Source: a virus
Direction: 5' to 3' (one strand)
Virus genome (UHGV): UHGV-1532611
Length of the DNA: 19,417 bases
The notes under the pieces are model-generated. The model did not search any database and was not told where the DNA came from. It saw only the letters and a list, made by a program, of their open reading frames with translations. Shown piece after piece: positions 4,844-19,417 of the stretch; within the stretch, counting starts at the first letter, position 1, and each line of letters begins with the position of its first letter. A program made the position numbers and the translations under genes.

Positions 4844-4844
4844 G

Positions 4845-4874: not shown

Positions 4875-4894
4875 TGAAACTGCTGAATAATCAG

Positions 4895-4920: not shown

Positions 4921-4929
4921 GTTTCTGGA

Positions 4930-4940
4930 CTAAATATAAT
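4930..4940 (+). promoter_or_regulatory. Promoter-like motif ctaaatataat upstream of the 4955 gene
   Basis: Immediately downstream of the capsid terminator; also contains a TATAAT hexamer. Confidence 0.3.
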
Positions 4941-4954
4941 AAAAAGGAGACAAC

Positions 4955-5251: not shown

Positions 5252-5642
5252 TCTGCCACGTTTAGGAATTAAACGCGCTCTGGAAGAAATAATCGTTAAA
5301 GAACTTAATCTGAAATACGTCAAAAACGCTTTCACAACTGGTGTTAAAGAACCTGTTCAAGTAATGATTCCAGGAATGACAGAAGAATATACGCGAATCG
5401 GTTTGCAATCGAAACTTGCAAGTGTTCTTAGTATTACGATTGATATTTTCTCAGAGAAAAGCGAAACAGGCGTTCACAAAGCCGTTTACGACTTAATTTC
5501 TATTAAAGCTAATCATGAAAAACTTATCCCATTTAAAATCGATAAGATTTATCCAAGTTCGAGCTTCACTGATTATGATAGTGAAGCATCAAATGGTCAT
5601 GTTAGCGCACAAATAATTTTAACTTTCGAATACTTAATGTGA
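5244..5642 (+). CDS. Tail terminator protein (lambda gpU-like)
   Basis: Start chosen at ATG 5244 (SD aggaga at 5229-5234), which overlaps the stop of the upstream gene (ATGACTAA); the ORF track begins this frame at 5166. The product is 132 aa, like gpU (131 aa), and its C-terminus ILTFEYLM resembles gpU's VITYEM. Confidence 0.65.
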   Translation: MTNLPRLGIKRALEEIIVKELNLKYVKNAFTTGVKEPVQVMIPGMTEEYTRIGLQSKLASVLSITIDIFSEKSETGVHKAVYDLISIKANHEKLIPFKIDKIYPSSSFTDYDSEASNGHVSAQIILTFEYLM

Positions 5643-5649
5643 GACTAAA

Positions 5650-6675
5650 ATGACAAACGATATTTTTGTAGGAAATAACGTCAGAGTTTCAGTTAATCCG
5701 CTAATCGTTGAAATCCCAGGATATAACGACCCAGGTTATGTAAGCACTGATAAACTGGCTGCATTCCCTGTTATCGGATTTAGAAAAGAAGTTCAGACAC
5801 TAGAAGATTACAGAACCGATTTCACAACGAAACTTTCAGGTGACGTAACAATTAACGACACTTCAATAAGCTTATTTGAAGACAGTTCTGACCCAGTTTA
5901 TCAGTTGCTTGATGAAGCTCTTATGGAAAAGAAACTCCTTAGATTCAGAAGTCTTTATGTTATCGATGGAGAAACAAAGAAAGATAATGATGCTGGTCTT
6001 TATCATATTTTTAATGCTTATGTAACGAAGAAAGAAACATCAGGTTCGGCTAACTCAGTCGTTACAACAACTTTTAATCTTTCTCCTGATGGTCAGTTGT
6101 TTACAGGTTTTGCTGAATTCTCAGTTCCGTTAAACGTTGGCGATTATGGTATTGGTGCTGGTACAGAAGAAATCGCAGGCGTTAAAGACTTAGGATTATT
6201 AACTGGTAACAGATGTGTAACAGTCGATGCAACAAACAGCGATAACCCTTATAACTCTGGCACGTCTGCTATGGCTATTCAGCATCCTGATGGTCAAGGT
6301 TGGGAGCTTATTGGTTCGTCAGTCGGTAATCCAAGCATCAGAATCAGAAACAAACAACAAAGCGGTGAAACTGTTACTGAATCTCCGTGGGTCAAAGTCT
6401 ATACAGAACTTGAACGTCCAACTCCTGAAGATATTAATGCTTTGCCTATTACTGGTGGAGAACTCAAAGGATCTTTGACTATTCAGGAATATCTGAACGT
6501 TCGTAAAAAGATTTCTGCGCCACAAGGTGAAATCTTGGCTCTAAATAGTAATGAAATTAACTCAACTTCTGTCAAGGTCAAAGGCAAAGAAGTCTATTCT
6601 CCAAGTAATAAACCAACGCCATTAGAGATTAATTGTGTAGCGTTAGGAGAAACCTTAGACGCAGGAGTATTTTAA
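5650..6675 (+). CDS. Major tail (tube) protein, gpV-like N-domain plus a ~180-aa C-terminal extension
   Basis: Directly follows the U-like gene as V does in lambda. The N-terminal ~160 aa are paralogous to the 9833-10309 product (AFP..G..EV.T......KL.G......D shared). The C-terminal half is Ser/Thr/Gly-rich, consistent with an Ig-like decoration domain as in gpV. Confidence 0.65.
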   Translation: MTNDIFVGNNVRVSVNPLIVEIPGYNDPGYVSTDKLAAFPVIGFRKEVQTLEDYRTDFTTKLSGDVTINDTSISLFEDSSDPVYQLLDEALMEKKLLRFRSLYVIDGETKKDNDAGLYHIFNAYVTKKETSGSANSVVTTTFNLSPDGQLFTGFAEFSVPLNVGDYGIGAGTEEIAGVKDLGLLTGNRCVTVDATNSDNPYNSGTSAMAIQHPDGQGWELIGSSVGNPSIRIRNKQQSGETVTESPWVKVYTELERPTPEDINALPITGGELKGSLTIQEYLNVRKKISAPQGEILALNSNEINSTSVKVKGKEVYSPSNKPTPLEINCVALGETLDAGVF

Positions 6676-6687
6676 CGGATAAAGAAA

Positions 6688-9600
6688 ATGGCAAATAATA
6701 AAGTTAAACATTATAGAACAGACGTCGCCGGAAGAAAGCCAGAAGCGAAAAACATGCTTGATGGTGAAATCGCTATTAACTTAGCCGATAAAAAGATTTT
6801 TACTAAATTCGGTGACGCTGTTATTAACATCGGTAATGGTGCTGATGCTGTTGTTGAAGGCGGTCAGACCTTTACTGGAAAAATTAAAGCAAGTGATATT
6901 GAATCCGATTCTAATCTGACTTTAAAAAATCTTGATAAAAGCGATATTGTTTTTGCTGATGAACACGACAAAGCAAAAGCACGTATTAGTTCTCCTGCTC
7001 AGACAGACTCTAAAGGTGAACTTCGTGTTACGGTAGCGAAAGGAAAAGGTACAGGAGAGAGTTCTGACTTCGTGCTTAACGGTAATGGTCAGTTATCTTT
7101 GCCTGCTGCTCCTGTTGCTCCTGATAGCGCTACGCGTAAAGATTACGTTGATTCTGAAATCAGCAAAGTTCAAACAGGTTCAAGTGCTGACCTGACGAAA
7201 CTCGAACAGAAAGTTGATGCTAACGACGCTGCTATTAACACTCGCGTTGATAATCTGAATTCAAAAGTTGACCAGAACGACACGGCTATTAATACGAAAG
7301 TTGATGCGAATAAAGCTGATGCTGACGAAAAGATTAAAGCAGTTAATGACCGTTTGACTGTTGATAATCAGACTCTGAAAGACATGATTGACACCAAAGT
7401 TAATAAAGCTGGCGACACGATGACTGGCGACTTAACTGTTCCTTCTGTTCATGCTGCTGGTAATGTATACGCAGGAACTTTGAAAGTTACACCTGCTGGT
7501 AATAACGGTGATGTTCTGAGTATTGAAAACCACGGCAGAACTTCAAAGACTATTCATCAAATTGCATACGCAACGGATACGGATGATCGACTGTTATTTC
7601 GTCGTGATGCTAACGAAGGAACCGACGCATTAGATCTAATGACCATGACTTGGGGAAAAACAGGCAGAGGAATGTCAATTGATATTTCAGGTCAAGCTAG
7701 AATCACTGATGCAGTAACAACTCCTTTAATGTCCGTTGCAAGCAACTTTGCCGTTGGAAATTCACTGGGTTTAAACTCTATCGCGATTGGTGATTCCGAC
7801 ACTGGTTTTAAATGGAGAGAAGACGGATGGTTAAACTTCTATTCAAATAACGTTGTAACAGCTTCTATTGCAGGATCTGAAAACTACTTTAATAGAAAAA
7901 CTCATTTCCGTTTCAGAAGTGATGATGGTGATTCGAATCTGATGGCTCCTGAAGGTTATTCATTAATTAATATCGATACGACAACCGACGGTAATAACAT
8001 TGGTGACGCCACGACTTATTTCGGATTAGTTAATGGTGGAAAATATAATCATTATCTGAGAGGTTCAGGCAGAACTTATATTGATACTAAAGAAGGTCTT
8101 GGTGTTGCTGGCCCTGCAAGTTTCTATAAAACGATTTATAATAATAAGCCTTACGGATGGTATGACTCGGAAAGCTTACCCGACTGGAACACTCCTGAGC
8201 AACAATCAAATCATTTAAGAAAAGTTAGAGCCGTTGGTGCTGGATCCATTTATCATGAGTTGGCAATGGCTAATCATCCTGACGATAGGCTGGATAACTC
8301 TATATGTTGGTTTCATGGTGATACTCCTGAATATTGGATGGGTTCATTAAACACCAATGGTCGATTGAATCTTGCAAGTGGTGTTTCTGTCAACGGCGAA
8401 TCTAATGCTATTCAGTTGAATATTCCTGCGTCGAATCAGGCAAGTTATATGTCTGGCAATATGGACGGTCGCAATAATACCTGGATTCTTGGCAAGACAA
8501 GTGAGAATCTCGATATTGTCTGGTCTCAGAATATGAGAAATGATTTCTCTACGTCATCTGGTGTTACTCTTAGAACTAACGGATCCGTGACGGTTCAGAC
8601 TGGTACTAATACCGCGATGGATATTCAGCATAATACAATTCAAATTGATGGTGCAAGATGGGCAGCAACCAATGATCATGCTTACGCTAATCAATGGAGA
8701 CAAAATGCTCCTATGCAGATTAACTTCGGAGCAGTTGCTGGTGAAAGTGATTATTATCCCGGATATTCGATGAACTCTGTTTCCGTAGGACACGGATTCT
8801 CTACTGTTGTTGAATTAGGAACTATTAGAGGACCAGCTAATTCATGGGGCAAAGGAATTCTTCGTGTTGGGACGAAAGAAGAATCGACGTTCGGTAAAAT
8901 GGCTAATTATGAATTTGATATCGATGGTCGTTTTGCTGTTCCTGGAAAAATTAATACTCCTTCTGTTGAAACAAATCGTTTAACAAGTTTTGGTATTAAC
9001 ACGGACAACGTACTAGGTGGAAACTCAATCGCGTTTGGTGATAACGATACAGGTATTCGACAAGTTACGGACGGAAACTTAAGCATTTTTACTAATGGTA
9101 TTCAAATCGCAACCTTTAACACAGCTGGTTTGACAATTGATCGGTCAATTACGATTAACACCCATAATGAGTCTCGCGGTGTTTATGTTGGAAACGTTAG
9201 AACCGGGGCAAGCAATGCGATGATTCAAGGTGTCGTTGACGGTTGGCCGCAGTGGTCAGCGTGGCGTGATCGTCCTGCGGGAATGATTGTTGAAGCTCAG
9301 ACTCGTGATAAATGTATTAATATCTGGAAACATGTTCATTGGGGCACAGAATACGGTGCTGCGATGGACATTTATAATCCGGGTAGTTCTGCTCCCGAGG
9401 CTGCACTTCACATTGGTGGTGCAGACTATCTATTCCTCGGTAATGGAACAGCAAATGCGATCCAATGGGTTAGCACTTCTGATAAACGTCTGAAATCGAA
9501 CTTTGAAGAAATTGAAAACGCAGTTGATAAAGTCGAGAAACTTACTGGTTACGTATACGATAAGAAATCTGATTTAGTCAAAACTGAATATTCATTCGAA

Positions 9601-9771
9601 GTTCGTGAAGCAGGTATTATTGCTCAAGAACTGAAAGAAGTATTACCAGAAGCTGTTAGTTCTTTCGGACCTGACGAAATTCTTGGTGTTAACTCTGCTG
9701 CTGTAAACGCGTTGCTGGTTAATGCTATCAAGGAATTAAGTGCTCGCGTTAAAGAACTTGAAGCTAAATAA
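6688..9771 (+). CDS. Tail fiber protein with C-terminal S74-type intramolecular chaperone (auto-cleaving) domain
   Basis: 1027 aa. Contains the KAGDTMTGDLTV phage-fiber repeat motif, a helical repeat region (DANDAAINTRVDNLNSKVDQNDTAINTKVD), two copies of an LG.NSIA.GD.DTG motif, and the C-terminal SDKRLKS...GIIAQEL...AIKEL domain that closely resembles the T5 pb1 / K1F endosialidase chaperone domain. Confidence 0.88.
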   Translation: MANNKVKHYRTDVAGRKPEAKNMLDGEIAINLADKKIFTKFGDAVINIGNGADAVVEGGQTFTGKIKASDIESDSNLTLKNLDKSDIVFADEHDKAKARISSPAQTDSKGELRVTVAKGKGTGESSDFVLNGNGQLSLPAAPVAPDSATRKDYVDSEISKVQTGSSADLTKLEQKVDANDAAINTRVDNLNSKVDQNDTAINTKVDANKADADEKIKAVNDRLTVDNQTLKDMIDTKVNKAGDTMTGDLTVPSVHAAGNVYAGTLKVTPAGNNGDVLSIENHGRTSKTIHQIAYATDTDDRLLFRRDANEGTDALDLMTMTWGKTGRGMSIDISGQARITDAVTTPLMSVASNFAVGNSLGLNSIAIGDSDTGFKWREDGWLNFYSNNVVTASIAGSENYFNRKTHFRFRSDDGDSNLMAPEGYSLINIDTTTDGNNIGDATTYFGLVNGGKYNHYLRGSGRTYIDTKEGLGVAGPASFYKTIYNNKPYGWYDSESLPDWNTPEQQSNHLRKVRAVGAGSIYHELAMANHPDDRLDNSICWFHGDTPEYWMGSLNTNGRLNLASGVSVNGESNAIQLNIPASNQASYMSGNMDGRNNTWILGKTSENLDIVWSQNMRNDFSTSSGVTLRTNGSVTVQTGTNTAMDIQHNTIQIDGARWAATNDHAYANQWRQNAPMQINFGAVAGESDYYPGYSMNSVSVGHGFSTVVELGTIRGPANSWGKGILRVGTKEESTFGKMANYEFDIDGRFAVPGKINTPSVETNRLTSFGINTDNVLGGNSIAFGDNDTGIRQVTDGNLSIFTNGIQIATFNTAGLTIDRSITINTHNESRGVYVGNVRTGASNAMIQGVVDGWPQWSAWRDRPAGMIVEAQTRDKCINIWKHVHWGTEYGAAMDIYNPGSSAPEAALHIGGADYLFLGNGTANAIQWVSTSDKRLKSNFEEIENAVDKVEKLTGYVYDKKSDLVKTEYSFEVREAGIIAQELKEVLPEAVSSFGPDEILGVNSAAVNALLVNAIKELSARVKELEAK
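9478..9768 (+). other. Region of the tail fiber gene encoding the S74 intramolecular chaperone domain (aa 931-1027)
   Basis: The SDKRLK motif begins at codon 9478-9480, followed by the conserved GxxAQELKEVLPE and AIKEL...ELEAK segments; released by autocleavage in known homologs. Confidence 0.75.
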
Positions 9772-9774
9772 CAA

Positions 9775-9794
9775 AAAGGGGAGAAATCCCCTTT
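9775..9794 (+). terminator. Hairpin / weak terminator after the tail fiber gene
   Basis: aaagggga-gaaa-tccccttt: GC stem with a GNRA loop; the U-tract is short (three T, part of the stem). Confidence 0.5.
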
Positions 9795-9795
9795 G

Positions 9796-9805
9796 CTAAA
9801 TAAAC
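9796..9805 (+). promoter_or_regulatory. Promoter-like motif ctaaataaac upstream of the 9833 gene
   Basis: Directly after the 9775-9794 hairpin. A near copy (ctaaataac, 9764-9772) overlaps the fiber stop codon. Confidence 0.3.
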
Positions 9806-9832
9806 TATATTAACTCAAATAGGAAATTAAAA

Positions 9833-10309
9833 ATGGCAGACAAATTTGATATTTTTGCTGGCTCTTACGTCAGTGTGTTCTATAACTCAGAAATTGCAAA
9901 CACCGATCTGAATTCAGAAAAGTTTGTTGAAATTCCTGAAACTGGTGCATTCCCTTCTACGGGTATTGAACGCGAAGTTATTACAGCTCCTAACTTCTCT
10001 CACAAATACTCCCGTAAACTGGTTGGTCGTGGCTCTGTTCCTGATATCGACTTGACCGTTAACTATATTCCAGAAAGCGTTCATGATGTTCTGATTAAGC
10101 TTGCGGAAGATGGTAAACGTGGTCAGTTTAAAATCGTTTATTGGATTGATGCTACTAAAAAACTGGGTGTTGCAAAAGTTTATAACGGCTTCTTGTCAAG
10201 CGCTGTTCATAATGGCGGTGAATCAGAAGTTCAAGGTCTGACAATGACACTGAGTGTTGATGGTGGTCCTGTTGTTTCTGGTGTTGTTGATTTGACATCA
10301 AGTGATTAA
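9833..10309 (+). CDS. Tail-tube-fold protein: second gpV-like paralog, or a distal tail (M/Dit-like) ring protein
   Basis: 158 aa. Aligns by eye with the N-domain of the 5650-6675 product, and its C-terminal pattern (KIVYWID...VYNGFLSSAV) resembles the gpV N-domain as remembered. Preceded by a terminator and promoter-like motif, followed by a terminator. Confidence 0.6.
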   Translation: MADKFDIFAGSYVSVFYNSEIANTDLNSEKFVEIPETGAFPSTGIEREVITAPNFSHKYSRKLVGRGSVPDIDLTVNYIPESVHDVLIKLAEDGKRGQFKIVYWIDATKKLGVAKVYNGFLSSAVHNGGESEVQGLTMTLSVDGGPVVSGVVDLTSSD

Positions 10310-10313
10310 TTAA

Positions 10314-10337
10314 AAAGACTCCGCAAGGGGTCTTTTT
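10314..10337 (+). terminator. Intrinsic terminator after the second tail-tube paralog
   Basis: agactcc-gcaa-ggggtct (7-bp stem with one G-U pair, GNRA loop) followed by seven T. Confidence 0.7.
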
Positions 10338-10341
10338 TTGG

Positions 10342-10351
10342 CTCTAAATAA
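10342..10351 (+). promoter_or_regulatory. Promoter-like motif ctaaataaag upstream of the 10367 gene
   Basis: Exact 10-mer shared with 14477-14486 and 15967-15976; sits just after the 10314-10337 terminator. Confidence 0.35.
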
Positions 10352-10366
10352 AGTCAGAGGTGAAAC

Positions 10367-10783
10367 ATGTTTAAATTTCAAGCTGACTTATCAAAATTAC
10401 TTAACCGCTATATCAATCAGCAACACGTTTTCGGTCAAAACGACTGTAATATCCTTGTTGCTGAATATATCGACCTTGTTTGTGCTACTGAATACACAGA
10501 CAAATTAAAAGACAAATACACGAGTATTCCTGAAGGTCTCAAGATTTGCAAAGAGCTAACTGGTTTTAATAACGTTCTCGAAGCGTGTGAAACGCATCTT
10601 GAGAAATCAGAAACTATAGAAACAGGCTCGGTTATCTTAATTAAGAAAAAACATAAAAACCGTGTCTATTACGTTGCATCTATCGTTTTTAATAATAGAG
10701 CATTAGTTGAACATGAAAATAAATATCAACTGATAAACGTCAACGATTTTAATTTTGAATTAATTTTTAACAGGAGAAAATAA
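10367..10783 (+). CDS. NlpC/P60-like tail tip protein (gpK C-terminal domain homolog, no MPN/JAB domain)
   Basis: 138 aa. HVFGQNDCNILVAEY matches the Cys motif of the gpK NlpC/P60 domain (HGVTDCYTLF) and GSVILIKKKHKNRVYYVASIVFNNRALVEH matches GDVLL...NHAAIY.GDGELLHH. Stop overlaps the start of the J-like gene (TAATG). Confidence 0.5.
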   Translation: MFKFQADLSKLLNRYINQQHVFGQNDCNILVAEYIDLVCATEYTDKLKDKYTSIPEGLKICKELTGFNNVLEACETHLEKSETIETGSVILIKKKHKNRVYYVASIVFNNRALVEHENKYQLINVNDFNFELIFNRRK

Positions 10784-13700
10784 TGGCTATTGTAGCTATT
10801 GGTGCAATTATCGCAGGTGCTTCCGCGGCTGCTGCTGCTTACGCTGCGGGTGCTGCTCTTGCTTTGGCAATTGGTATTGGTGTCGCTGTTGCTGCTGTTT
10901 CTGCTTTGATGTCAACTCAGATGGCGCAGAACGTTCCCCGATTTAACAGCACAGACACAGCAACGACATTAGGAACAACGTCAGATCCATCAAGTGTTAT
11001 TCCTATTATCTATGGTGAACAGCGTACAGGTACGATTAACGTTTGGAAAGCTGTTGGCGTTGATACGACATATTTGGTTCAGATCTTTGCAATCTGTGAA
11101 GGTGAAGTTGATAGCTTCAAAAACCTTTATATGGATAATCAGAAAATCTTACTTGATGGCGTTTATAAAGACGGTGTTCTTCCGAAAGGTTCAATCGCTG
11201 CTGAATATCAGCAATATGTTGAAGTTGAATTCTCAACTGGTAAGCCATACGGTCACGTTTTTACTCTTGCTCAGAAATATCTAGGAAATTCAGATGCTGG
11301 CTGGCCTGATTCTGCTACTGGTAATAACATCGCTGCTTGTTGTGTTGTTATGCGCAAACGTAACTCAGACCTTCAAAACCAAGCTGATATCCTGCAACCT
11401 AACAGTCAAGTATCTGTTGACGTTAGAGGACGTTTGATTACAGATCTGAACACAGGAGAACGCGTTTCCTCGAACAACGGTCCGAGTCAGATTGTTGATT
11501 ATCTAACAAATGATAGATACGGTCTTGGAATTCAGATTGATAAAATCGACCTTGATAGTTTTAAAGAAGCTGCTCGATATGCAAAACTGAACAGTTTATT
11601 TTCTGATGGTGCAACTGACCCGAACGGTTCATTCAAAGAAAACTTAACTCAGCTTGCAGGTGCATTTAACGGTATTATCACAGAGACTTTCGGTAAAGTA
11701 ACATGCAGAATCGATGGACCTGATGTTGTTCAATATGACTTCAACGAAGATAATATTAACGCTGGTACTGTTAGCTTAAACGATGGCGGTTCTGAGAATT
11801 ATTACAATACTCTGAACGTGAAATATCAAGATCCGTCGATTGACTATTCTGACCAAGTTCTGCGTTATCCGTCTGACGTAACAAATGATGGAACAATCGC
11901 GAAAGATAAACGTATTATCGCTAAAGATATCAGTTACAGATTCGTGAAATCAAAATCTCAGTTGGATAAAATTGCTTCAATCGAACGTAACAAATCTCTG
12001 TTAAAGCAAGTTATTAGTTTTTCAACTGCTGATGCTTATACCGCACAGGTCTGGGATGTTATCAGAGTTAATTTCTCTGAACTGGAACTTGTGAATTCAT
12101 TATGGCGTATTACTAATATCGATCGTTCGATGAATAAAGGTGCTGCTGGTATCGTTACTATTACTGCTTCTGAATATATCGAAGAAGTTTATACCAATCT
12201 TGACTACGCGAAAGACCCTGATAACACAGGAAGCAACATTCCTAATAAATCTGTTCTGATTGCTCCTAAGAATCTGACAGTTAAAGCAGTTGCTGAAACA
12301 GCTTTAGGAAGAACTCTGAAAGTTCAATGGACGTCTGAACCTGATTATAATCGCGCAGGTTATTATATTCAGTATAGTCTTGCTGGTAAGAACTCTTGGA
12401 TTCAAGCAGGTTTCACATCAGGCGATTATTTCTTGATTATGAGTCTTGACCCTAATCAGAAATTTGATATTCGTGTTTGTGCTTCTGGTGTTGTGTATCG
12501 TTCAGATTGGGTTTATGTCAATAACGTTAACCCTGAGGTTATGTATAACTTACCAGTCGTTACAGGACTGCACCTAGTGAACGCAGTTGAAAATCAATAC
12601 ACCACTAACAAGACTCAATTTGAATTCGCCTGGGACGACCAGAGCGCACAGAAATTCTATGTTGACGACACGTTACAGACATTCGGTGAAGTTTTTCAAT
12701 ATTACGAAATCAAAATTGAAGGTCAGCGTCCTGTAATTTACAAGACTAAAGACTTAGGTTTTGTATATGACTTTAATATGAACTTGGGTAATGGTCTGAG
12801 TCGTGAATTGAAAGTTTCTGTTACTGCATACGGTCACGCTGGTATGAAGTCAGATCCTGCTGTTATTACTGTTAAGAACAATCAAGCTCCTGCTATTCAA
12901 GGTTTCACAGCTTCGAATGGTCCTGGAATGCTGATGTGCTCTTGGAATGACCCACGCGATAATAAGCCTGAAGTTCCTGACTTCAAAGGCACAATCGTTC
13001 ATATTGCGAAAGACCAGAGTTTTAATGAAATTGTTCACGTTTATTCAAGTTCAAGTCCGTTCTTAGATAATTTTCCATTAGAAGATGGTCAATTCTATGT
13101 TCGTTCAGCTTGGTATGACGTATTCGGACAAGACCAGATTACTTGGTCAGAATCGAAGTTTATCGATATGAAATGGGATATTCCGTGGACTGACGATATG
13201 AAAGAACAGTTAAACGATTTGCTTGATTTGGATAAACGTGTTGATGGTGCTATCGATGAAGCATTAGACCTCGCTAACAAATACACTGATACGAAAGTTA
13301 CAGCATCCGAGCAAAAAGTTACTACTGAATTAAATCAGACTATCACGACGAAAAACACCGAACTTCATACTCAGATTACTAATGAAACTAATGGCGCTAT
13401 CAATCAGGCTATCAGTATTCAAGAATCTAACTTTGATGGAAAACTTAACTCGGCTATTACGAAAGTTGAAAAAACTCAAGCTGATGATAGACAAGCAACC
13501 GCAAGTTCAATTAATCAATTGAAAGCTGAAACAAACACAGCTATTGCAACAGTTAGTCAAGAATCAAAAGCAAGCGTTGACGACTTAACAGGAACGATTA
13601 ATAGCAAATGGGCAGTTCAGACTAATGCCGACGGTGTTGTTGCTGGTATCAGTATGCTGGCTAATAAGAATCCTGACGGTTCAAAACAGTCTAGTATTGT

Positions 13701-14472
13701 TTTTAACGCTGATAAAATCGCTATAACGAATAACAATACTCCTGCGGGTGCTGTTGCTCCGTTTATGGTCGCTGATAACAGAGTTTATATGGATTCTGCA
13801 ATGATTCGTAATGCTTCTATCGGTTCAGCACAGATTGCAGATGCTTCTATTAACAACGCTAAGATTCAAAACGGTGCTATTAACAACGCGAAGATTGAAA
13901 ACGGTGCGATTACTACTGCGAAAATTGGTAATGCTCAGATCGGTTCAGCACAGATTGCTTATGAAATATCTTCTGATAACTGGTTCCCTTCCGGTGGTAC
14001 TCAAGGTTGGACAATCAGAAAAGACGGTTGGGCTTCTTTCCAAAACGTTAATATCAGAGGTAACATTCAAGCAGATTCTGGTTATTTCGCAGGTGAAATC
14101 AGAGGCGGTTCAGGTTATTTCACAGGAACTGTATACGCTGACAGAATTGAAGGTGACGTTATCAAAATGGGTCATATAGATCCGTGGACAACAGTTCATA
14201 TTCCTGCTGTTAACTGGAACAGAGTAATTTCTATTCCAAACCTTTCGATTTCAGGCAGAACTTATTCCGGTGGTGCTTGGGGCTACGGAACTGCATGGAT
14301 TAATATGTCGAACGGTCAAGAAATCGTAAGAACAGTTACCAGTGCAATGAGTGGTTCAAACGGTGGTACAGGCATTATCTATGCGGGACAAGCTGTTGAT
14401 TTGAGTTACGGTGCTGACTTGAATCATGCGACCGCAGCAAGAGCAGTTTACTTTATCAGTAAACAACAATAA
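10783..14472 (+). CDS. Tail tip / host specificity protein (gpJ-like) with gpI-like N-terminal segment
   Basis: 1229 aa. The N-terminal Gly/Ala-rich hydrophobic stretch followed by VIPIIYGEQRTGTINV resembles the gpI C-terminus (VLPVLYGEMRVGSRVV). IVDYLTNDRYGLG matches the gpJ LTHPRYGMG region. Two FN3-like segments, a helical region and NAKIxNGAI-type repeats are present, and WAVQTNADGVVAGISM...FNADKIAI resembles gpJ [20 protein letters not shown]...VAANRIAF. The C-terminal ~170 aa are the likely receptor-binding domain. Confidence 0.85.
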   Translation: MAIVAIGAIIAGASAAAAAYAAGAALALAIGIGVAVAAVSALMSTQMAQNVPRFNSTDTATTLGTTSDPSSVIPIIYGEQRTGTINVWKAVGVDTTYLVQIFAICEGEVDSFKNLYMDNQKILLDGVYKDGVLPKGSIAAEYQQYVEVEFSTGKPYGHVFTLAQKYLGNSDAGWPDSATGNNIAACCVVMRKRNSDLQNQADILQPNSQVSVDVRGRLITDLNTGERVSSNNGPSQIVDYLTNDRYGLGIQIDKIDLDSFKEAARYAKLNSLFSDGATDPNGSFKENLTQLAGAFNGIITETFGKVTCRIDGPDVVQYDFNEDNINAGTVSLNDGGSENYYNTLNVKYQDPSIDYSDQVLRYPSDVTNDGTIAKDKRIIAKDISYRFVKSKSQLDKIASIERNKSLLKQVISFSTADAYTAQVWDVIRVNFSELELVNSLWRITNIDRSMNKGAAGIVTITASEYIEEVYTNLDYAKDPDNTGSNIPNKSVLIAPKNLTVKAVAETALGRTLKVQWTSEPDYNRAGYYIQYSLAGKNSWIQAGFTSGDYFLIMSLDPNQKFDIRVCASGVVYRSDWVYVNNVNPEVMYNLPVVTGLHLVNAVENQYTTNKTQFEFAWDDQSAQKFYVDDTLQTFGEVFQYYEIKIEGQRPVIYKTKDLGFVYDFNMNLGNGLSRELKVSVTAYGHAGMKSDPAVITVKNNQAPAIQGFTASNGPGMLMCSWNDPRDNKPEVPDFKGTIVHIAKDQSFNEIVHVYSSSSPFLDNFPLEDGQFYVRSAWYDVFGQDQITWSESKFIDMKWDIPWTDDMKEQLNDLLDLDKRVDGAIDEALDLANKYTDTKVTASEQKVTTELNQTITTKNTELHTQITNETNGAINQAISIQESNFDGKLNSAITKVEKTQADDRQATASSINQLKAETNTAIATVSQESKASVDDLTGTINSKWAVQTNADGVVAGISMLANKNPDGSKQSSIVFNADKIAITNNNTPAGAVAPFMVADNRVYMDSAMIRNASIGSAQIADASINNAKIQNGAINNAKIENGAITTAKIGNAQIGSAQIAYEISSDNWFPSGGTQGWTIRKDGWASFQNVNIRGNIQADSGYFAGEIRGGSGYFTGTVYADRIEGDVIKMGHIDPWTTVHIPAVNWNRVISIPNLSISGRTYSGGAWGYGTAWINMSNGQEIVRTVTSAMSGSNGGTGIIYAGQAVDLSYGADLNHATAARAVYFISKQQ

Positions 14473-14476
14473 CGTT

Positions 14477-14486
14477 CTAAATAAAG
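14477..14486 (+). promoter_or_regulatory. Promoter-like motif ctaaataaag upstream of the 14518 gene
   Basis: Exact 10-mer, 4 nt after the J-like stop and 31 nt before ATG 14518. Confidence 0.35.
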
Positions 14487-14517
14487 ACAAGGAGGTCTTT
14501 TAAAAAGGAGATTCAAG

Positions 14518-14802
14518 ATGGTCGATATAGCACTGATCATTTCCATCTTGGGTGCTCTAGGAGGTTTCTTGGCTTGGGTTTATGCCGAAATTAAATCAAA
14601 CAATGAAAAACGAATTGACCTTGAGAAACGTTTCTCAGACATCGAAAAAAGCATAGCCGTTAATGACGCAAAAGATGCTTCGCTTATAAGCGATATAACA
14701 CGACAACAGGATGAATTTCGAGAGGTCAAATCTGATTTGAAGAATTTAGAAGGAAGAACAGCAAAGCTAGATATCGACCTAGCAGTTCTAAGAGGAAAAT
14801 GA
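14518..14802 (+). CDS. Small membrane-anchored coiled-coil protein (one N-terminal TM helix); function unknown
   Basis: 94 aa with two SD-like elements upstream (aaggagg 14489-14495, aaggag 14505-14510). IALIISILGALGGFLAWVYA is a predicted TM helix, followed by a charged helical region. Stop overlaps the next start (ATGA). No cysteine, so not a lipoprotein. Confidence 0.6.
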   Translation: MVDIALIISILGALGGFLAWVYAEIKSNNEKRIDLEKRFSDIEKSIAVNDAKDASLISDITRQQDEFREVKSDLKNLEGRTAKLDIDLAVLRGK

Positions 14803-15275
14803 AAAGAAAAGAGATTCCGATTTATAAGCAAGAACTCTTTCAAAAGCAAAAAGGTCTTTGTGCTTTAACTGGCATAAAGATTCATGAAGTTAATAAAGCC
14901 CATCTTGACCATGACCATATATTAACAGGCTCTAACGCAGGCAGATGCAGAGGATTATTAATCGCTCAAGCAAACGTCCTAGAGGGCAGAATAAAACATC
15001 AGTTTAAACGTTCGGGTCTCGATGGGAAAATTGACTACATCGAGTTTTTGAAGAATCTTGTTCAGTATCTTGAAAAAGACTACTCAGACAATCCTACGCA
15101 TCCACAACTTATTCCTGATTTAAAGAAGGCGTTCTCTCGAAAAAATCTTTCTGAGATGAAAGCTATTACAGGTTCAAACCTTAAAACGAAAAAGGAGCTT
15201 GAAAAAGTCTACTCAAACCAAATAAAGGTGAAATATGAAAATGAAATATCTCCAAGCATTGGCAAAACACGCTAA
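14799..15275 (+). CDS. T4 endonuclease VII (gp49)-like junction-resolving / HNH-fold nuclease
   Basis: 158 aa (T4 endo VII is 157 aa). HLDHDH, GRCRGLL, N..EG and KHQFKRSGL.G..DYIEFL.NL..YL..DYS.N..HP are collinear with T4 endo VII as remembered. The catalytic Asp/His/His/Asn/Glu equivalents are present. Confidence 0.8.
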   Translation: MKRKEIPIYKQELFQKQKGLCALTGIKIHEVNKAHLDHDHILTGSNAGRCRGLLIAQANVLEGRIKHQFKRSGLDGKIDYIEFLKNLVQYLEKDYSDNPTHPQLIPDLKKAFSRKNLSEMKAITGSNLKTKKELEKVYSNQIKVKYENEISPSIGKTR

Positions 15276-15432
15276 AGATTATCTTATTGTTCTATTTCTC
15301 GTTACTATAACTTATAACACTGTTGCTGTTCCTGTTCTGCAAGCTTTCGATATTAAAGCACCTAAAATGATTCTTATCAGCGAAGAACAGATAAAAACAT
15401 TTGGGACGCTTCTGATGTCAGGAGTGAACTAA
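15235..15432 (+). CDS. Small single-pass membrane protein, hypothetical
   Basis: 65 aa with SD aaggtga (15222-15228) before ATG 15235. Predicted TM helix YLIVLFLVTITYNTVAVPVL. Overlaps the 3' end of the endo VII-like gene by 41 nt in another frame, and its stop overlaps the next start (TAATG), so the call is tentative. Confidence 0.4.
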   Translation: MKMKYLQALAKHAKDYLIVLFLVTITYNTVAVPVLQAFDIKAPKMILISEEQIKTFGTLLMSGVN

Positions 15433-15974
15433 TGGCAAAAGCAAAAGATGTTATGAAAGACCTTGAAAAATGGCGAATCAAAGAATCTGACGTGTTCAGT
15501 AAGAAAGTAACCAAAGCGTCTAAACTCGCTTCTGTTGAGTTGCAAAGAAAAATCAACAGACGAGTCGATGGACCAGTTAATTTCACTAAGAACGCAGTAG
15601 GTTTCAGTTTCAGATACGATCAGAACGGGTCACGAAATAGAATATTCATCAAAGACAAGCAGGCTGATTATCTTGCTCCGTTAATTGATGATAACAAAGG
15701 AATTAACAAGTTTGTTCCAACTGGTGTAAGAGGTTCAAAGAACAAATTCGGTAACATTCCTAACTTGAAATCAAGAAATAATCTTGAAGCTGTCAAGCAA
15801 AAAAAAGATGGCGTAACTCGAACGATCCTCATTAAAACTAACGTTAAAAAGCAAGACCGTCGTTTAATTGCTGTATTCAAGAAAAATCAACACAGAAGAA
15901 AAACTCTGGGTTCATGGAATCAAATCTCTGACGATATATTCAAAACCGTTAAGCGTGTTGCGGGTACTAAATAA
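15432..15974 (+). CDS. Lys/Arg-rich basic protein, hypothetical
   Basis: 180 aa, strongly basic, no cysteine. SD ggagtga (15421-15427). No recognisable family by eye. Confidence 0.6.
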   Translation: MAKAKDVMKDLEKWRIKESDVFSKKVTKASKLASVELQRKINRRVDGPVNFTKNAVGFSFRYDQNGSRNRIFIKDKQADYLAPLIDDNKGINKFVPTGVRGSKNKFGNIPNLKSRNNLEAVKQKKDGVTRTILIKTNVKKQDRRLIAVFKKNQHRRKTLGSWNQISDDIFKTVKRVAGTK

Positions 15975-15976
15975 AG
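15967..15976 (+). promoter_or_regulatory. Promoter-like motif ctaaataaag upstream of the 15992 gene
   Basis: Exact 10-mer overlapping the stop codon of the 180-aa gene, 15 nt before ATG 15992. Confidence 0.35.
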
Positions 15977-15991
15977 TCAAAAGGAGAACAA

Positions 15992-16309
15992 ATGAACATT
16001 CACGATTTTGATACTTACAGATTAGACGAACTTGCCGACATCTACGTTAACGAGATTAATCCCGAGTCAATGACTGTTCCTTACGGTTGCGAACACATCA
16101 AAGATAAGCGAATTAAAAAATATCTGTTCAACGATAAGAACGTTTTTATTGTTTCAACACAGAAGAAAAAACCTAATTGTCATTTCAAATTAGGACAGAC
16201 AGTTCGACTGCAAGGTCCATTTTTTGAGACCGAAGCGAAGAACTTAGGAATGATTGAATATATCCACAAAGGTTTCAGAATGTACGGATATTTCTTTCAA
16301 TGGAAATAA
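15992..16309 (+). CDS. Hypothetical small protein (moron-like unit)
   Basis: 105 aa with a strong SD (aaaaggaga, 15977-15985). A promoter-like motif lies upstream (15967-15976) and a terminator hairpin immediately downstream (16311-16336). Contains two Cys and several His. Confidence 0.65.
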   Translation: MNIHDFDTYRLDELADIYVNEINPESMTVPYGCEHIKDKRIKKYLFNDKNVFIVSTQKKKPNCHFKLGQTVRLQGPFFETEAKNLGMIEYIHKGFRMYGYFFQWK

Positions 16310-16310
16310 C

Positions 16311-16336
16311 AAAAGGGAGCCTCGCGCTCCCTTTTT
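16311..16336 (+). terminator. Intrinsic terminator after the 105-aa gene
   Basis: gggagc-ctcgc-gctccc stem-loop flanked by aaaa upstream and ttttt downstream. Confidence 0.7.
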
Positions 16337-16348
16337 CATAAATAAAAG
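16337..16348 (+). promoter_or_regulatory. Promoter-like motif cataaataaaag upstream of the G-like chaperone gene
   Basis: Directly after the 16311-16336 terminator, 24 nt before ATG 16373. Confidence 0.3.
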
Positions 16349-16372
16349 AAAACTCAACAAAGGGAAACAAAA

Positions 16373-16681
16373 ATGAATTTCGATGAAATGTTAGCAAGTC
16401 TTTCGCCTTCTCGCGAACCAGTAGAAATCAACGGCTTTAAATTCTATGCTCGTCCTATGACCGTATCTGAATTCGGTGAATTCTATTTCAAAAATGAAAA
16501 CACAGAAGAACGTAACGACCGAATGATTCTGAATTGTATTCAACACGAAGACGGAACTCCTGTTTTTAAAGAAATCGCTCAAGTTCAGAAACTTTATACC
16601 ACTGTTCGTTCAACTCTTGCTAGTGCTGTTTCTACTGCCAGTATTCTCAGTAAGAAATCAGACGTTCTGGAAAAGAACTAA
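16373..16681 (+). CDS. Tail assembly chaperone (gpG-like)
   Basis: 102 aa immediately upstream of the tape measure gene. EINGFKFYARPMTVSEF resembles gpG FEHNGVTVTLSELSALQ. Its 3' end overlaps an open -1 frame (the T-like frame). Confidence 0.6.
   Translation: MNFDEMLASLSPSREPVEINGFKFYARPMTVSEFGEFYFKNENTEERNDRMILNCIQHEDGTPVFKEIAQVQKLYTTVRSTLASAVSTASILSKKSDVLEKN
16669..16675 (+). other. Candidate -1 ribosomal frameshift site (G GAA AAG) for a G-T fusion
   Basis: GGAAAAG lies in the G-frame 2 codons before the G stop, inside the G/T overlap. It differs by one base from the lambda G-T slippery site G GGA AAG; the A-site AAG to AAA slip is canonical. Confidence 0.35.
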
Positions 16682-16716
16682 GACAGAACTGGGCTAAATC
16701 ATTTCAGTATAGAACA

Positions 16717-17079
16717 ATGCTACGTCGCGGATTATCTAACGATGAAATTCAACAGATGTCCGTGATGATGTATTACGAACTATGGTTTTTCGACTCGTTT
16801 ATTGAACCTCAAGGTCCTGTCTATAACGATTTCTATCAAGCACGTTTGGTCCACACTATCGAAGCTAATAATCCTAATCTTACAAAAGAATATAGGAAAA
16901 AGCTCAACATGAAAGATCACCTGCTTATTAAAGATTCTGTGTTTAAGTCTCAAGAGGAAATCGAAAAAGAGAAAGAGCAACAGGAGCTTAAACGCAAGAA
17001 AGCTGTTGAATCGATGTTCGACCCTGCTCTGTTAGACAAAGTTAGACTGAAACAACAAAAAAAGGTGAATAATGGCTAA
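16717..17079 (+). CDS. Tail assembly chaperone T-like segment, probably made as a G-T fusion by -1 frameshift
   Basis: The frame is open from 16624 and overlaps the 3' end of the G-like ORF in the -1 frame. ATG 16717 has no SD. Stop overlaps the tape measure start. Coordinates are those of the ATG-initiated ORF; the fusion product would begin at 16373. Confidence 0.5.
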   Translation: MLRRGLSNDEIQQMSVMMYYELWFFDSFIEPQGPVYNDFYQARLVHTIEANNPNLTKEYRKKLNMKDHLLIKDSVFKSQEEIEKEKEQQELKRKKAVESMFDPALLDKVRLKQQKKVNNG

Positions 17080-19417
17080 ATCACGTTATGACGTCGAGAT
17101 TAACGGAGATAACAAAGGCCTATCAATTTCTATTGACAAGTCCATGAAGAAACTGAATGAACTCGATTCAGTAGCTAATGGACTTTTTAGTAATATGACA
17201 GGACCGTTGAATAATCTCAACAACGGAATCTCAGGTATTGCAGGAATGTCCAAGGGTATGCAAGCTCTGGGGATTGCAGGAATGGCAGCAGGTGCAGGTG
17301 TAGCTGTTCTTAATACCGCGTTAGAAAAAACGAGAGAACTCAATCAACTCTCTACATCAACTGGTCTTTCAGTTGAATATCTGCAACAACTTAAAAATGA
17401 ATTTCGCGAAACAGGTATGGAGATTGACCGTTTCGGAGATTTAAACAAAGACACATTAGATAAACTTGGCGATTCATTCAGAGAAGGTCATGGCGGTATT
17501 GCAGACGACCTCAAAGAATGGGGTATTGGTCTTGAACAGTACACACAATACGTCAACGATGCCCAAGGCGGTATTAAAGCGCTTGTTCAGACTTATTATG
17601 ACCTGAAAGCTGCTGGTGCAAGTCAAGCTGAAATCGTGAACGGAATGGAGTCAATGGCTTCTGATGCTTCACATTTGATTTCAACTCTTGAAAAATACGG
17701 TTCAACTCAAGACGCATTAAACGCTATTAACAATCGTTCTGTTGATATCACAAACGAAACAGCAAAAGAATATAAAGAATTCGACGAAAACATGAAAACG
17801 TTAACCGTCAATCTGGATAATCTAACTGTTAACGTTATGAGTCCGTTAGTTAAGAAAATGAACGACCTGTTCGAAATTGCTAATAAAGATTGGACAGCAA
17901 GTAACTTTTTAGACTTCATGGGAACATTAAGCACGTTGCGTCCTGATGCTGCTCTTTCTGATTGGGCTGCCGAAGCGACTGTTAACAAAATGGGCGAATG
18001 GATGCCTAATGCGGGTTTTGCTAAACGTAGAAAAGCAATTGCAGATGAAGAAAAGTTTCAGAAAGATATTGCCGCAGCAAGAATCAAAGCTGATGAAAAT
18101 CTTCGTTTACAGCAAGCAAATGCTAAAACTGCCGCAGATCTGAAAAGAAAAAAAGATGCATTAGCTGCCGAAGACGCTAAGAAAGAAGCTGAAAAAGCTA
18201 AACGCGAAGCTGACAAAATAGCAAGAGAAGCTAAAGCTGCTTATGATAAGATGATGCAAGAGCGTCAGACAGCGTTACAGAATCTTTCCAGTCTTGATGC
18301 TGCAATTCTCAGTCAAGAAGGCAGAACTATTTCTAGTCAAGTCAGTAAAGTTAGAGAAGCTGTTGAAACAATCGACGAACTTGAAAAGAAAGGAATAATC
18401 AGCGCTACACAGGCAAATCAACGTCGTAAAATGCTTTTTGAGAATTCAAACAAAGAATTCAAACAAACTCTTATGGCAAGTCCTGAAGAAATCGGTGCTA
18501 TTACGTCGAGTCTTGAAATCGTATATCAACAACAACTTGAACAACTCGAAGCTAAGAAAGCCCAATCGCTTATCGGTCAGAAAGAATATAATTCTCAGTT
18601 AGAAGCTATTCAGAAAGACCATCAGCAACGTCTTGAAGCAATTAAAGCGACTGCTGGCGATGGTAATATGTCTAATCTTAAAAATCTTGATGCTATCGGT
18701 TTTGCAACTGATGAAGAAAAAATGGCTATTCAACAGAAAATGTTGGAAGAACAATTTCAGAAGATGCAAGAACAGAACCAAAAGCTATATGACGGACAAT
18801 TGATTTCTTATGAAGATTATCTCAAACAGAAACAGCGTCTTGAGCAAGCTTATGCGGTTAAATCGAAAGCAATTACTTTCACTGAGATTCAGACAAAACT
18901 CCAGATGTATAACGGTTTTGCTTCTGGTATGGGTGCAGTTATAGCCGGTATTTCTGGTGAAAACTCTAAAGCTGCTCAAGCAATGTTTGCAGTTGAAAAA
19001 GGAACAGCAATCGCAAGCGGTATGTTAAACGCTTATGAATCAGCAACTGCTTCAATGGCAAAATATCCTGGTCCTTTAGGTTACGCTCTGGCTGCTTCAA
19101 GTTATGCAAGAGTTATCGGACAAGTCATGCAGATGAAATCAGTGAATCTTACTGGTATGGCTCACGATGGTATTTCTAATGTTCCAAGAGAAGGGACATG
19201 GCTGCTTGATGGTGGCGAACGTGTCGTTGATGAAAGAACAAACGGCGACTTGAAAGACTTCTTAGATAATCAGAAAACAGGAGGCGAAACAAAAATCGAC
19301 GCAAGTATTCACGTTTCAGGGAATGTTACTGATCAGCGTTGGTTTGCTGAACAATTAAAACGTCAGCAACAGAACATCGCGGCTATTGTTCAAGACAGCA
19401 ACAGACGCAAGATGTAA
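17072..19417 (+). CDS. Tail tape measure protein
   Basis: 781 aa, largely helical and Ala/Gln/Lys/Glu-rich, with Gly/Ala-rich hydrophobic segments near both ends (GIAGMAAGAGVAVL; GMGAVIAGISG), directly after the G/T-like chaperone pair. Using the lambda rule of about 0.15 nm per residue this predicts a tail of roughly 115-120 nm. Confidence 0.8.
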   Translation: MAKSRYDVEINGDNKGLSISIDKSMKKLNELDSVANGLFSNMTGPLNNLNNGISGIAGMSKGMQALGIAGMAAGAGVAVLNTALEKTRELNQLSTSTGLSVEYLQQLKNEFRETGMEIDRFGDLNKDTLDKLGDSFREGHGGIADDLKEWGIGLEQYTQYVNDAQGGIKALVQTYYDLKAAGASQAEIVNGMESMASDASHLISTLEKYGSTQDALNAINNRSVDITNETAKEYKEFDENMKTLTVNLDNLTVNVMSPLVKKMNDLFEIANKDWTASNFLDFMGTLSTLRPDAALSDWAAEATVNKMGEWMPNAGFAKRRKAIADEEKFQKDIAAARIKADENLRLQQANAKTAADLKRKKDALAAEDAKKEAEKAKREADKIAREAKAAYDKMMQERQTALQNLSSLDAAILSQEGRTISSQVSKVREAVETIDELEKKGIISATQANQRRKMLFENSNKEFKQTLMASPEEIGAITSSLEIVYQQQLEQLEAKKAQSLIGQKEYNSQLEAIQKDHQQRLEAIKATAGDGNMSNLKNLDAIGFATDEEKMAIQQKMLEEQFQKMQEQNQKLYDGQLISYEDYLKQKQRLEQAYAVKSKAITFTEIQTKLQMYNGFASGMGAVIAGISGENSKAAQAMFAVEKGTAIASGMLNAYESATASMAKYPGPLGYALAASSYARVIGQVMQMKSVNLTGMAHDGISNVPREGTWLLDGGERVVDERTNGDLKDFLDNQKTGGETKIDASIHVSGNVTDQRWFAEQLKRQQQNIAAIVQDSNRRKM

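Follow-up and report, generated by a model that had tools for sequence, protein, structure and literature searches.

A gpI-like hydrophobic N-terminal module on the J-like tail-tip protein of an Escherichia coli prophage

Main finding

In the J-like tail-tip protein described here, residues 1 to ~91 are homologous, with a probability which we put at about 80%, to the structural domain of lambda gpI that stays in the virion (gpI ~102–209), and they are carried in one chain with a hub of the gpJ/pb3 type. The gpI likeness of this N-terminus is a real homology, and the one-chain layout fits the existing knowledge of tail tips. Judged from the sequence, the module is only the structural half of gpI, with equivalents of H1/H2, of the plug and of the beta-strand. 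The protein belongs to the siphophage baseplate hub or central tail fibre J family (PHROG 31) and combines this module with a hub like that of gpJ and pb3, FNIII-like repeats and a tip-fibre domain.

The gene comes from an E. coli prophage and bears the RefSeq label 'phage tail tip fiber protein'. The whole stretch of DNA that was analyzed (virus genome UHGV-1532611, 19,417 nucleotides) is called the window, and the coordinates of the features within it are given in Table 1.

Table 1. Features of the tail-tip region, with window coordinates, strand and supporting evidence
Feature	Coordinates	Strand	Evidence and remarks
Tail-tube-fold-like protein, 158 aa, M/L position	9833..10309	+	phrog_158 E 5.3e-16; weak Pfam Phage_TTP_12 match
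DUF6950 protein, 138 aa, lambda K position	10367..10783	+	Pfam DUF6950 E 1.6e-10
AGGAG ribosome-binding site	10772..10776	+	6 nt ahead of the start codon at 10783
J-like tail-tip hub / central fibre gene	10783..14472	+	1229 aa; phrog_31, Pfam Phage_Tail_Tip, PDB profile, Foldseek
Uncharged Ala/Gly-rich hydrophobic segment, residues 1–44	10783..10914	+	Positional equivalent of gpI H1/H2 (gpI about 102–156); hydropathy, composition, HMM alignment
Plug-equivalent and linker TQMAQNVPRFNSTDTATTLGTTSDPSS, residues 45–71	10915..10995	+	Equivalent to gpI 156–188 including plug 159–175; BLASTP, hhalign, PDB search
Beta-strand motif VIPIIYGEQRTGTINVWKAV, residues 72–91	10996..11055	+	Equivalent to gpI 188–207 (VLPVLYGEMRVGSRVVSQEI) and T5 pb3 262–281
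Start of J-proper part YLVQIFAICEGEVDSFKNLYMDN, residues 92–126	11056..11160	+	Contiguous with the strand motif, as in T5 pb3 282–315

Homology to lambda gpI

A family profile of residues 1–126 was searched against all PDB sequences with hmmsearch. Its best match is lambda gpI (8iyk_I, E 1.8e-5, query 6–95 = gpI 119–212) and its second is T5 pb3 (E 4e-4, query 71–119 = pb3 262–311). A longer profile of 516 positions matched pb3 at 6.7e-37 in two collinear stretches, the T1 tail fibre at 8e-25, gpJ at 4e-9 and gpI at 5.2e-6. In this profile lambda gpI falls at query 7–99 and lambda gpJ at query 227–431, so the alignment with both families that an earlier note on this DNA had suggested as a check came out in the right order. 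Alignment by hhalign against the gpI family gave 94% probability (E 1.2e-7), rising to 95% (E 3e-8) with a module profile of 53 sequences, and pairwise BLASTP of the J-like N-terminus with gpI gave E 5e-5. The gpI family of PHROGs (PHROG 32) matches the query at E 0.006–0.0075 over profile positions 103–188 of 203.

At the level of motifs, residues 1–44 (MAIVAIGAIIAGASAAAAAYAAGAALALAIGIGVAVAAVSALMS) are followed by VPRFNSTD and then by VIPIIYGEQRTG. The earlier note had pointed to a resemblance between this last motif and the C-terminus of gpI; the lambda gpI record indeed has GNVLPVLYGEMRVGSRVVSQE near its C-terminus and the query has VIPIIYGEQRTGTINV at residues 72–87, which confirms the gpI sequence given in the note. 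The Pfam model of the gpI ubiquitin-like domain (Lambda_tail_I, PF06805) found no match on the query at E up to 1. This is no argument against homology, because the model spans only gpI 14–97; the first residue of the J-like protein corresponds to gpI ~102. The proposal of the earlier note that the protein is an I-J fusion, or carries an I-like module on J, is thus upheld by the profiles for the gpI relation and has to be narrowed for its extent, as the ubiquitin-like domain is absent and only the structural half is present.

The whole resemblance might instead have arisen by convergence, the hydrophobic segment and the YG..R.G strand being native to a J subfamily without a common origin with gpI, and we regard this as unlikely. 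Several observations speak for it or tell against the homology reading. Hundreds of J-like clusters have the module as a conserved part of their N-terminus; significant similarity to gpI extends over only about 30–50 residues or columns round the plug and strand; and the hydrophobic part, which is of low complexity, is aligned with gpI by position only. The reciprocal search, with a narrow HMM of the C-terminal half built from lambda gpI only and run against six frames of the window, placed the J N-terminus first and in the right register at a non-significant E of 1.1. Against convergence stand the rank of gpI as top match in the whole PDB and the identical order of hydrophobic segment, PRxxxTD and (V/L)P..YGE.R.G in gpI and query. 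In PHROG 31 coordinates gpI occupies 132–276, the query N-terminus 180–310 and the lambda J start 263, so that the end of gpI and the start of lambda J fall exactly at the point where the query runs on; residues 92–126 lie where lambda J begins. In T5 pb3 also the strand and the J start are contiguous, with the plug just ahead. Single-chain I-J proteins that retain the N-domain of gpI exist as well: the metagenome proteins P0272 (1360 aa) and P0232 bridge the two layouts by joining an N-domain like that of gpI to the hydrophobic segment, the motif and J, and P0272 matches phrog_32 at E 1e-21 over residues 70–192.

Spread of the one-chain layout

A first word-indexed search for homologues gave 6 matches, and an exhaustive search of representatives gave 422 clusters (50% identity) matching the module profile. 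Among the 150 of these clusters that were listed, nearly all match at the N-terminus and most of these are long proteins. The arrangement of the gpI structural half and J in one chain (called here I'-J) is common among phages, not rare, and the PHROG 31 profile already includes the gpI-like module. The earlier note had opposed a relation to gpI to the segment being a conserved part of J-family proteins; the segment is conserved in J-like proteins (the 422 clusters), yet it is related to gpI.

No phage genome was matched by megablast of the region. A tblastn search with the N-terminus, in which the low-complexity filter masked residues 1–44, returned Escherichia phage DCP80 and T5-like Vibrio phages only. 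No explicit description of an 'I-J fusion' was found in the literature search.

Composition of the hydrophobic segment

The hydrophobic Gly/Ala-rich start claimed in the earlier note, which had marked 10783–11085 (residues 1–101), is seen plainly in the composition. Residues 1–44 have no charged residue and 57% Ala+Gly (20 Ala, 5 Gly), and the Kyte-Doolittle mean is at least 1.6 in all 19-residue windows starting at residues 1–30, with a maximum of 2.42. In hydropathy and composition the segment is like gpI 102–156, which is also uncharged and G/A-rich. Its description as glycine-zipper-like stands only in a loose sense: patterns of the type small-xxx-small-xxx-small (Ala, Gly, Ser) are enriched in residues 1–44 (14 such triples where the composition predicts 8.9; p about 0.02 by shuffling), but the segment has no GxxxG and so no GxxxGxxxG zipper. 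In the same N-terminal region of the gene only weak tandem repeats are seen, at the codon level; scans of the region for promoters, terminators and tandem repeats gave nothing bearing on the gpI-like module.

Being N-terminal, strongly hydrophobic and uncharged, such a segment could also be read not as a virion plug or insertion device but as a signal peptide of the Sec type or an anchor in the inner membrane, which would direct the protein to the host membrane or keep it there while it is made or assembled. We consider this improbable, more so than convergence. A positively charged n-region is missing, and 44 uncharged residues far exceed the length of an h-region. Tail proteins assemble in the cytoplasm. 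The homology to gpI also argues against this reading, as the hydrophobic helices of gpI are resolved within the assembled tail tip, with density that is lost in the open state and with membrane insertion proposed (PMC11101478).

A two-helix hairpin at residues 1–44 is putative, drawn from homology and hydropathy, and finds no support in AF2. In an AF2 monomer model of residues 1–520 (alignment of 11 sequences), residues 1–71 have pLDDT about 24 and show no helices, and strands are placed at residues 79–83 and 85–91 with pLDDT about 79.

Translation of the N-terminus

The hydrophobic segment is, by its sequence signals, truly translated, because it has a ribosome-binding site, a start codon overlapping the stop of the upstream gene, an excess of synonymous changes and a conserved protein N-terminus. 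The ATG at 10783 overlaps the TAA of the preceding gene (TAATG), and the ribosome-binding site and ATG are kept in related loci. In codons 1–44 synonymous against non-synonymous differences number 16 against 5 and 15 against 4 in the closest relatives. The hydrophobic N-terminus is present in all 46 of the related viral loci and is retained in homologues as distant as 44% identity. A miscalled start, with the true one downstream (e.g. Met43 or Met47) and the hydrophobic stretch untranslated, has only internal Met codons in its favour and can be set aside in view of the AGGAG 6 nt upstream, the TAATG overlap, the synonymous excess and an N-terminus conserved at the protein level also across the 422 clusters.

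The J hub and the rest of the protein

The whole J-like protein matches phrog_31 at E 5.7e-61, and Pfam Phage_Tail_Tip / DUF1983 (PF09327) matches residues 926–1021 at E 2.2e-23. The AF2 model has pLDDT mostly above 75 across residues 72–470, bar a few lower blocks of 10 residues. Foldseek with this model gave T5 pb3 as best match (E 1.3e-25, TM 0.62), lambda gpJ at 6e-19 and further hub matches in T1, JBD30, Chi and RcGTA. The fold of the hub domains HDII, HDIII and HDIV is confirmed at the level of the predicted model.

The element that carries the gene is interrupted by insertion sequences in some hosts: IS3 breaks its terminase in one and IS5 breaks the J-like gene in another. The prophage element may be defective, and therefore the working of this J-like copy in a live virion is not guaranteed.

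Neighbouring genes

In 44 of the 46 related loci, the DUF6950 gene adjoins the J-like ORF. Its product has no Pfam match to Prok-JAB or NLPC_P60, and no JAB domain was matched in those ORFs of the window that were run against Pfam; for the terminase fragment, the portal and the protease/capsid ORFs the scan used PHROGs alone. Compared with lambda K, BLASTP found nothing, and hhalign lines up the Cys motif at a probability of only 0.5%. It has no match among PDB sequences, and its AF2 single-sequence model (pLDDT 45.6) is too poor to use.

The 158-aa tail-tube-fold-like protein is a candidate source of the hub domain HDI, which is absent from the J-like protein. PDB sequence searches with this protein and a 180-aa neighbour, for L-like/HDI and Dit pieces, gave nothing significant. 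The surroundings of the gene, with tail-tube-like, chaperone and tape-measure-like genes, are consistent with a predicted siphophage tail-tip trimer.

Comparison with known systems

Lambda gpI (8IYK chain I, 8XCG, 9E7M) shares with the query the uncharged Ala/Gly-rich stretch, PRxx(S/T)TD and (V/L)P(V/I)(L/I)YGE.R.G, and both modules are encoded directly ahead of the J hub sequence. The query differs in having no ubiquitin-like N-domain and in being joined to J in one ORF, whereas gpI is a separate polypeptide. The hydrophobic stretch of the query is shorter and richer in Ala (44 residues against about 55 in gpI), and the query lacks some 40 residues of the junction between I-tail and J-head in lambda. 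Lambda gpI is described as having H1/H2, a plug (159–175) and strands, the strands threading the gpJ hub domains (PMC11101478). Lambda gpJ resembles the query in hub domains, FNIII repeats and tip-fibre domain, but begins about 90 residues 'later' (PHROG 31 position 263 against 180) and receives plug and strand in trans from gpI, where the query has them in cis. The JAB and NlpC/P60 partner of lambda, gpK, is without a detected JAB-containing counterpart in the query. According to a 2025 conference report, as summarised in PMC12908700, lambda appears to free the structural domain through cleavage of the ubiquitin-like domain by gpK.

T5 pb3 (7ZHJ, 7ZQB, 7ZQP) and the T5-like pb3 of Vibrio phage JSF10 have the strand motif and the J-type hub contiguous, as in the query (pb3 262–315 = query 73–126; pb3 402–748 = query 173–502). 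The pb3 plug lies just N-terminal of the strand, and residues 45–71 of the query sit at this very position, directly before pb3 residue 262. Unlike the query, pb3 has a gpL-like HDI region of about 260 residues ahead of the motif, which makes its plug internal; this plug has only a short hydrophobic tip (LFGL), which takes the form of a beta-hairpin on refolding, and it has neither long hydrophobic helices nor a free N-terminus. The single chain of pb3 corresponds to gpL and gpI together with gpJ's N-terminal part (PMC10721106), and its plug takes on a new fold and enters the membrane (PMC10038345). P0272 and P0232 show the same order of modules in one chain as the query, but keep the gpI-like N-domain ahead of the hydrophobic segment with which the query opens.

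The hub of the element would be made of two pieces (a separate L-like part and I'-J), intermediate between lambda with its three (L, I, J) and T5 with its one (pb3). The word 'fusion' in the earlier note may give the wrong direction of change, because T5 pb3 has all parts in one chain.

Proposed mechanism

The module is made in one chain with the gpJ/pb3-type hub and begins at the initiator Met. If the tip works as the structures of lambda and T5 suggest, in the closed tail three copies of the beta-strand motif would be built into the hub domains, the three plug segments would shut the tube and touch the C-terminus of the tape-measure protein, and the hydrophobic N-termini would be housed in the cone's lumen. 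Receptor binding would make the hub domains swing out and free the plug, and the N-termini might then drop onto the outer membrane and insert, either anchoring the open tube or forming part of the outer-membrane passage. Membrane insertion of the J-like N-terminus is thus suggested by the lambda and T5 structures; for gpI H1/H2 it is a published hypothesis (PMC11101478, PMC12617516).

Tentatively, it may also be that the proteolytic checkpoint of lambda (ubiquitin-like N-domain of gpI and JAB of gpK) is dispensable in this prophage family, although we hold this to be the less probable case. The hydrophobic N-terminus would be free from the start codon, its delivery would be by the covalent link to J, and the DUF6950 protein in the K position is without a detected JAB; the hub would then carry a tethered outer-membrane insertion device of six helices (3 x 2).

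Value of the finding

The data provide a demonstration at the sequence level that the structural half of gpI belongs with gpJ as the two parts of a single hub subunit, as structural papers had proposed from lambda and T5, and they show how widely I' and J occur in one chain (422 clusters at 50% identity).

In annotation, many proteins labelled 'J' or 'tail fibre' which have an N-terminal 'TM helix' are better taken as carriers of the gpI plug/insertion module than as membrane proteins. Pfam Lambda_tail_I is blind to the plug module, because only the ubiquitin-like domain is modelled.

The family is also a natural construct, with its predicted hydrophobic helices fixed to the hub and no ubiquitin-like/JAB processing, and it is usable for probing whether such helices insert into the outer membrane.

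The J-like protein and its N-terminal segment

The body of the J-like protein is a tail-tip hub of the lambda-J/T5-pb3 type with a central fibre. PHROG 31 ("central tail fiber J") was matched with an E value of 5.7e-61, Pfam Phage_Tail_Tip was located at residues 926-1021, and in the PDB the 516-position family profile matched T5 pb3 (6.7e-37), the T1 tail fibre protein (8e-25), the F2-pyocin fibre and lambda gpJ (4e-9). When residues 1-520 were modelled with AF2, pLDDT lay above 75 over most of the stretch between residue 72 and about 470, with a few lower blocks; Foldseek placed T5 pb3 first among the structural matches of the model (E 1.3e-25, TM 0.62), ahead of lambda gpJ and of the T1, JBD30, Chi and RcGTA hubs.

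The N-terminus obtained by translation consists, in order, of MAIVAIGAIIAGASAAAAAYAAGAALALAIGIGVAVAAVSALMS, TQMAQNVPRFNSTDTATTLGTTSDPSS and VIPIIYGEQRTGTINVWKAV, exactly as the earlier note had read it, and the lambda gpI C-terminus which it gave (...GNVLPVLYGEMRVGSRVVSQE...) agrees with the lambda record. Residues 1-44 contain no charged residue and 57% Ala+Gly (20 Ala, 5 Gly), and the Kyte-Doolittle mean exceeds 1.6 for all 19-residue windows starting at 1-30; lambda gpI 102-156 is likewise uncharged, with 45% Gly+Ala. The term "glycine zipper" is loose for this segment: small-xxx-small spacing is modestly enriched (p about 0.02), but there is no true GxxxG. Residues 1-44 are translated. The ATG, which shares bases with the stop of the upstream gene, is separated by 6 nt from an upstream AGGAG; synonymous differences from the closest relatives outnumber non-synonymous ones in codons 1-44 (16 vs 5 and 15 vs 4); and the hydrophobic N-terminus is retained among homologues down to 44% identity and in 46/46 related IMG/VR loci.

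Relation to lambda gpI

The most telling test was an hmmsearch of a 126-position N-terminal profile against all 177,635 distinct PDB sequences, in which lambda "tail tip assembly protein I" was the best match (E 1.8e-5; query 6-95 to gpI 119-212) and T5 pb3 the second (E 4e-4; query 71-119 to pb3 262-311). The 516-position profile matched gpI at query 7-99 and gpJ at query 227-431, separate chains in the correct order, and it matched T5 pb3 as two collinear stretches. By hhalign, a six-member alignment of the N-terminus matched a 12-member gpI alignment with 94% probability (E 1.2e-7; query 46-93 to gpI 156-209), and a 53-sequence module alignment matched the gpI family with 95% (E 3e-8). In a single pairwise BLASTP comparison, query 50-84 matched gpI 160-200 with E 5e-5.

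In the coordinates of PHROG 31, lambda J 1-300 maps to 263-562, lambda gpI 54-209 to 132-276 (E 3.5e-8), the query N-terminus (3-119) to 180-310 and T5-like pb3 to 55-1056; thus the C-terminal half of gpI and the query N-terminus share one stretch, immediately ahead of the lambda J start. The query N-terminus also matched PHROG 32, the gpI family, in its C-terminal part (positions 103-188 of 203; E 0.006-0.0075). Two metagenomic proteins, P0272 (1360 aa; E 1e-21 to PHROG 32) and P0232 (352 aa), carry in one chain a gpI-like N-domain, a hydrophobic stretch, the plug/strand motif and J; they are complete I-J fusions which link lambda gpI with the architecture of the query. Significant similarity between query and gpI extends over a short region around plug and strand; the alignment of the hydrophobic part is positional only. 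In the reciprocal search with a narrow lambda-only HMM of the gpI C-terminal half, the J ORF was the top match and in the correct register, yet with E 1.1. The observation of the earlier note is confirmed, and its I-J interpretation is supported by the PDB-wide search, hhalign, the PHROG 31 coordinates and the bridging proteins, with fusion or fission as possible directions; what is joined to J corresponds to the structural half of gpI (hydrophobic helices H1/H2, plug and beta-strand), not the ubiquitin-like half.

Components of gpI, gpK and pb3

Pfam Lambda_tail_I (PF06805) spans only gpI 14-97, the ubiquitin-like domain (lambda gene I, 4774-5442 of the lambda locus L003), and gave no match on the query; this silence means that the ubiquitin-like domain is absent and says nothing against the structural half. 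The first residue of the query corresponds to gpI ~102, right behind the ...AGAKSGG which closes the gpI ubiquitin-like region, and this coincides with the start of gpI in the closed lambda tail, resolved "from position 101 onward" by Ge & Wang (PMC11101478). For lambda gpI, whose ubiquitin-like domain gpK is reported to remove (2025 conference report, summarised in PMC12908700), we infer GG as the cleavage point. Of gpI, the query contains the structural half alone, the virion-resident part, for which Pfam offers no model; its copies, fused or stand-alone, therefore remain unannotated.

The K position is occupied by a DUF6950 gene, paired with I'-J (gpI structural half on J) in 44/46 related loci. 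Pfam found neither JAB nor NlpC/P60 in its product, and neither JAB nor a ubiquitin-like domain in the remaining window ORFs scanned; comparisons of DUF6950 with gpK gave no significant link. The DUF6950 protein has a conserved G-x-N-D-C-N motif resembling the catalytic-Cys region of NlpC/P60. T5 pb3 has ~260 residues before the motif (the gpL-like HDI region of the hub), whereas the J-like protein lacks them, and HDI must therefore be supplied by another gene, for which the 158-aa tail-tube-like ORF is only a candidate.

Genomic context

Features of the window, in order of position
Feature	Coordinates	Strand	Remarks
634-aa ORF	2939-4843		prohead-protease-like N-part and major-capsid-like part; PHROG 617, 4523, 80
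Tail-tube-like gene	5650-6675		fibre-like C-terminus
Tail fibre	6688-9771		S74 intramolecular chaperone
Second tail-tube-like gene	9833-10309		158 aa
DUF6950 gene	10367-10783		138 aa; K position; stop overlaps J start
J-like ORF (I'-J)	10783-14472	+	1229 aa, from translation
94-aa ORF			between I'-J and endonuclease VII
Endonuclease VII	14799-15275
Assembly chaperone	16373-16681
Tape-measure-like ORF	17072 to window end

The window represents a prophage-like element in the E. coli chromosome. Over the queried tail-tip stretch (9800-14500) it is 100% identical to E. coli MS 115-1, where a DUF6950 gene comes before the J-like gene and the latter carries the annotation "phage tail tip fiber protein". 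The order of the tail genes across 5650-19417 places J ahead of the tape measure and is unusual. RefSeq names the 634-aa ORF "HK97 family phage prohead protease". The spacer that separates the tail-fibre gene from the 158-aa ORF contains a perfect 8-bp hairpin (AAAGGGGA TTTC TCCCCTTT; 9775-9794), which a terminator scan marked as terminator-like on the minus strand.

In MS 115-1 (NZ_CP146665.1 3139340-3184040) an IS3 splits the large-terminase gene (window 92-817), the left flank carries a retron-Ec67-type reverse transcriptase and a TIR-domain protein, and the element, probably a defective prophage with defence genes, ends at ldtB, straight after a 799-aa tape-measure-like ORF. In E. coli 2021CK-01361 (NZ_CP107720.1 3270458-3276359) ISEc68 (IS5-like) interrupts the J-like gene, which accounts for the 100% identical 339-aa database protein P0001. 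Among phage genomes, the nearest relative of the J-like N-terminus, with about 55% identity, is encoded by Escherichia phage DCP80 (PQ671644.1, gene 8866-12624; 141 kb), where endonuclease VII (13146-13613) again lies 3' of the J-like gene and a long tape-measure-sized ORF 5'; the Straboviridae/Tevenvirinae classification of DCP80 looks odd for a phage whose tip protein is of the lambda-J type.

Proposed mechanism

In the closed lambda tail the gpI trimer plugs the tube, holds up the C-terminal coiled coil of the tape measure and is joined to gpJ through beta-sheet augmentation; once LamB is bound, the hub domains move outwards, the plug becomes loose and the density of H1/H2 disappears, and entry of H1/H2 into the outer membrane has been proposed (PMC11101478, PMC10721106). 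The T5 pb3 plug, directly before residue 262, refolds into membrane-inserting beta-hairpin legs (PMC10038345). AF2 predicts strands confidently at residues 72-91 and no structure for 1-71. By homology and position, residues 72-91 would form the hub-integrated strand and 45-71 the plug, and residues 1-44 may be a hydrophobic element which is stored in the lumen and released towards the outer membrane.

Distribution and value

With a cut-off of E 1e-3, an exhaustive HMMER search of the N-terminal profile against 1.84 billion cluster representatives matched 422 clusters. Of the 150 listed, almost every one aligns with the whole profile at its extreme N-terminus, 95 have a length of 600 aa or more and 92 have the [VIL]P..YG..R.G motif (median position 77), preceded in 81/92 by a strongly hydrophobic stretch. 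The I'-J arrangement is common; by this survey it is a standard hub variant, which the PHROG 31 profile already includes. The literature equates gpL, gpI and gpJ(N) with T5 pb3 (PMC10721106), and our literature search found no paper explicitly describing the two-piece I'-J form. The main value of I'-J lies in annotation and in its being a natural construct without the ubiquitin-like/JAB processing step.
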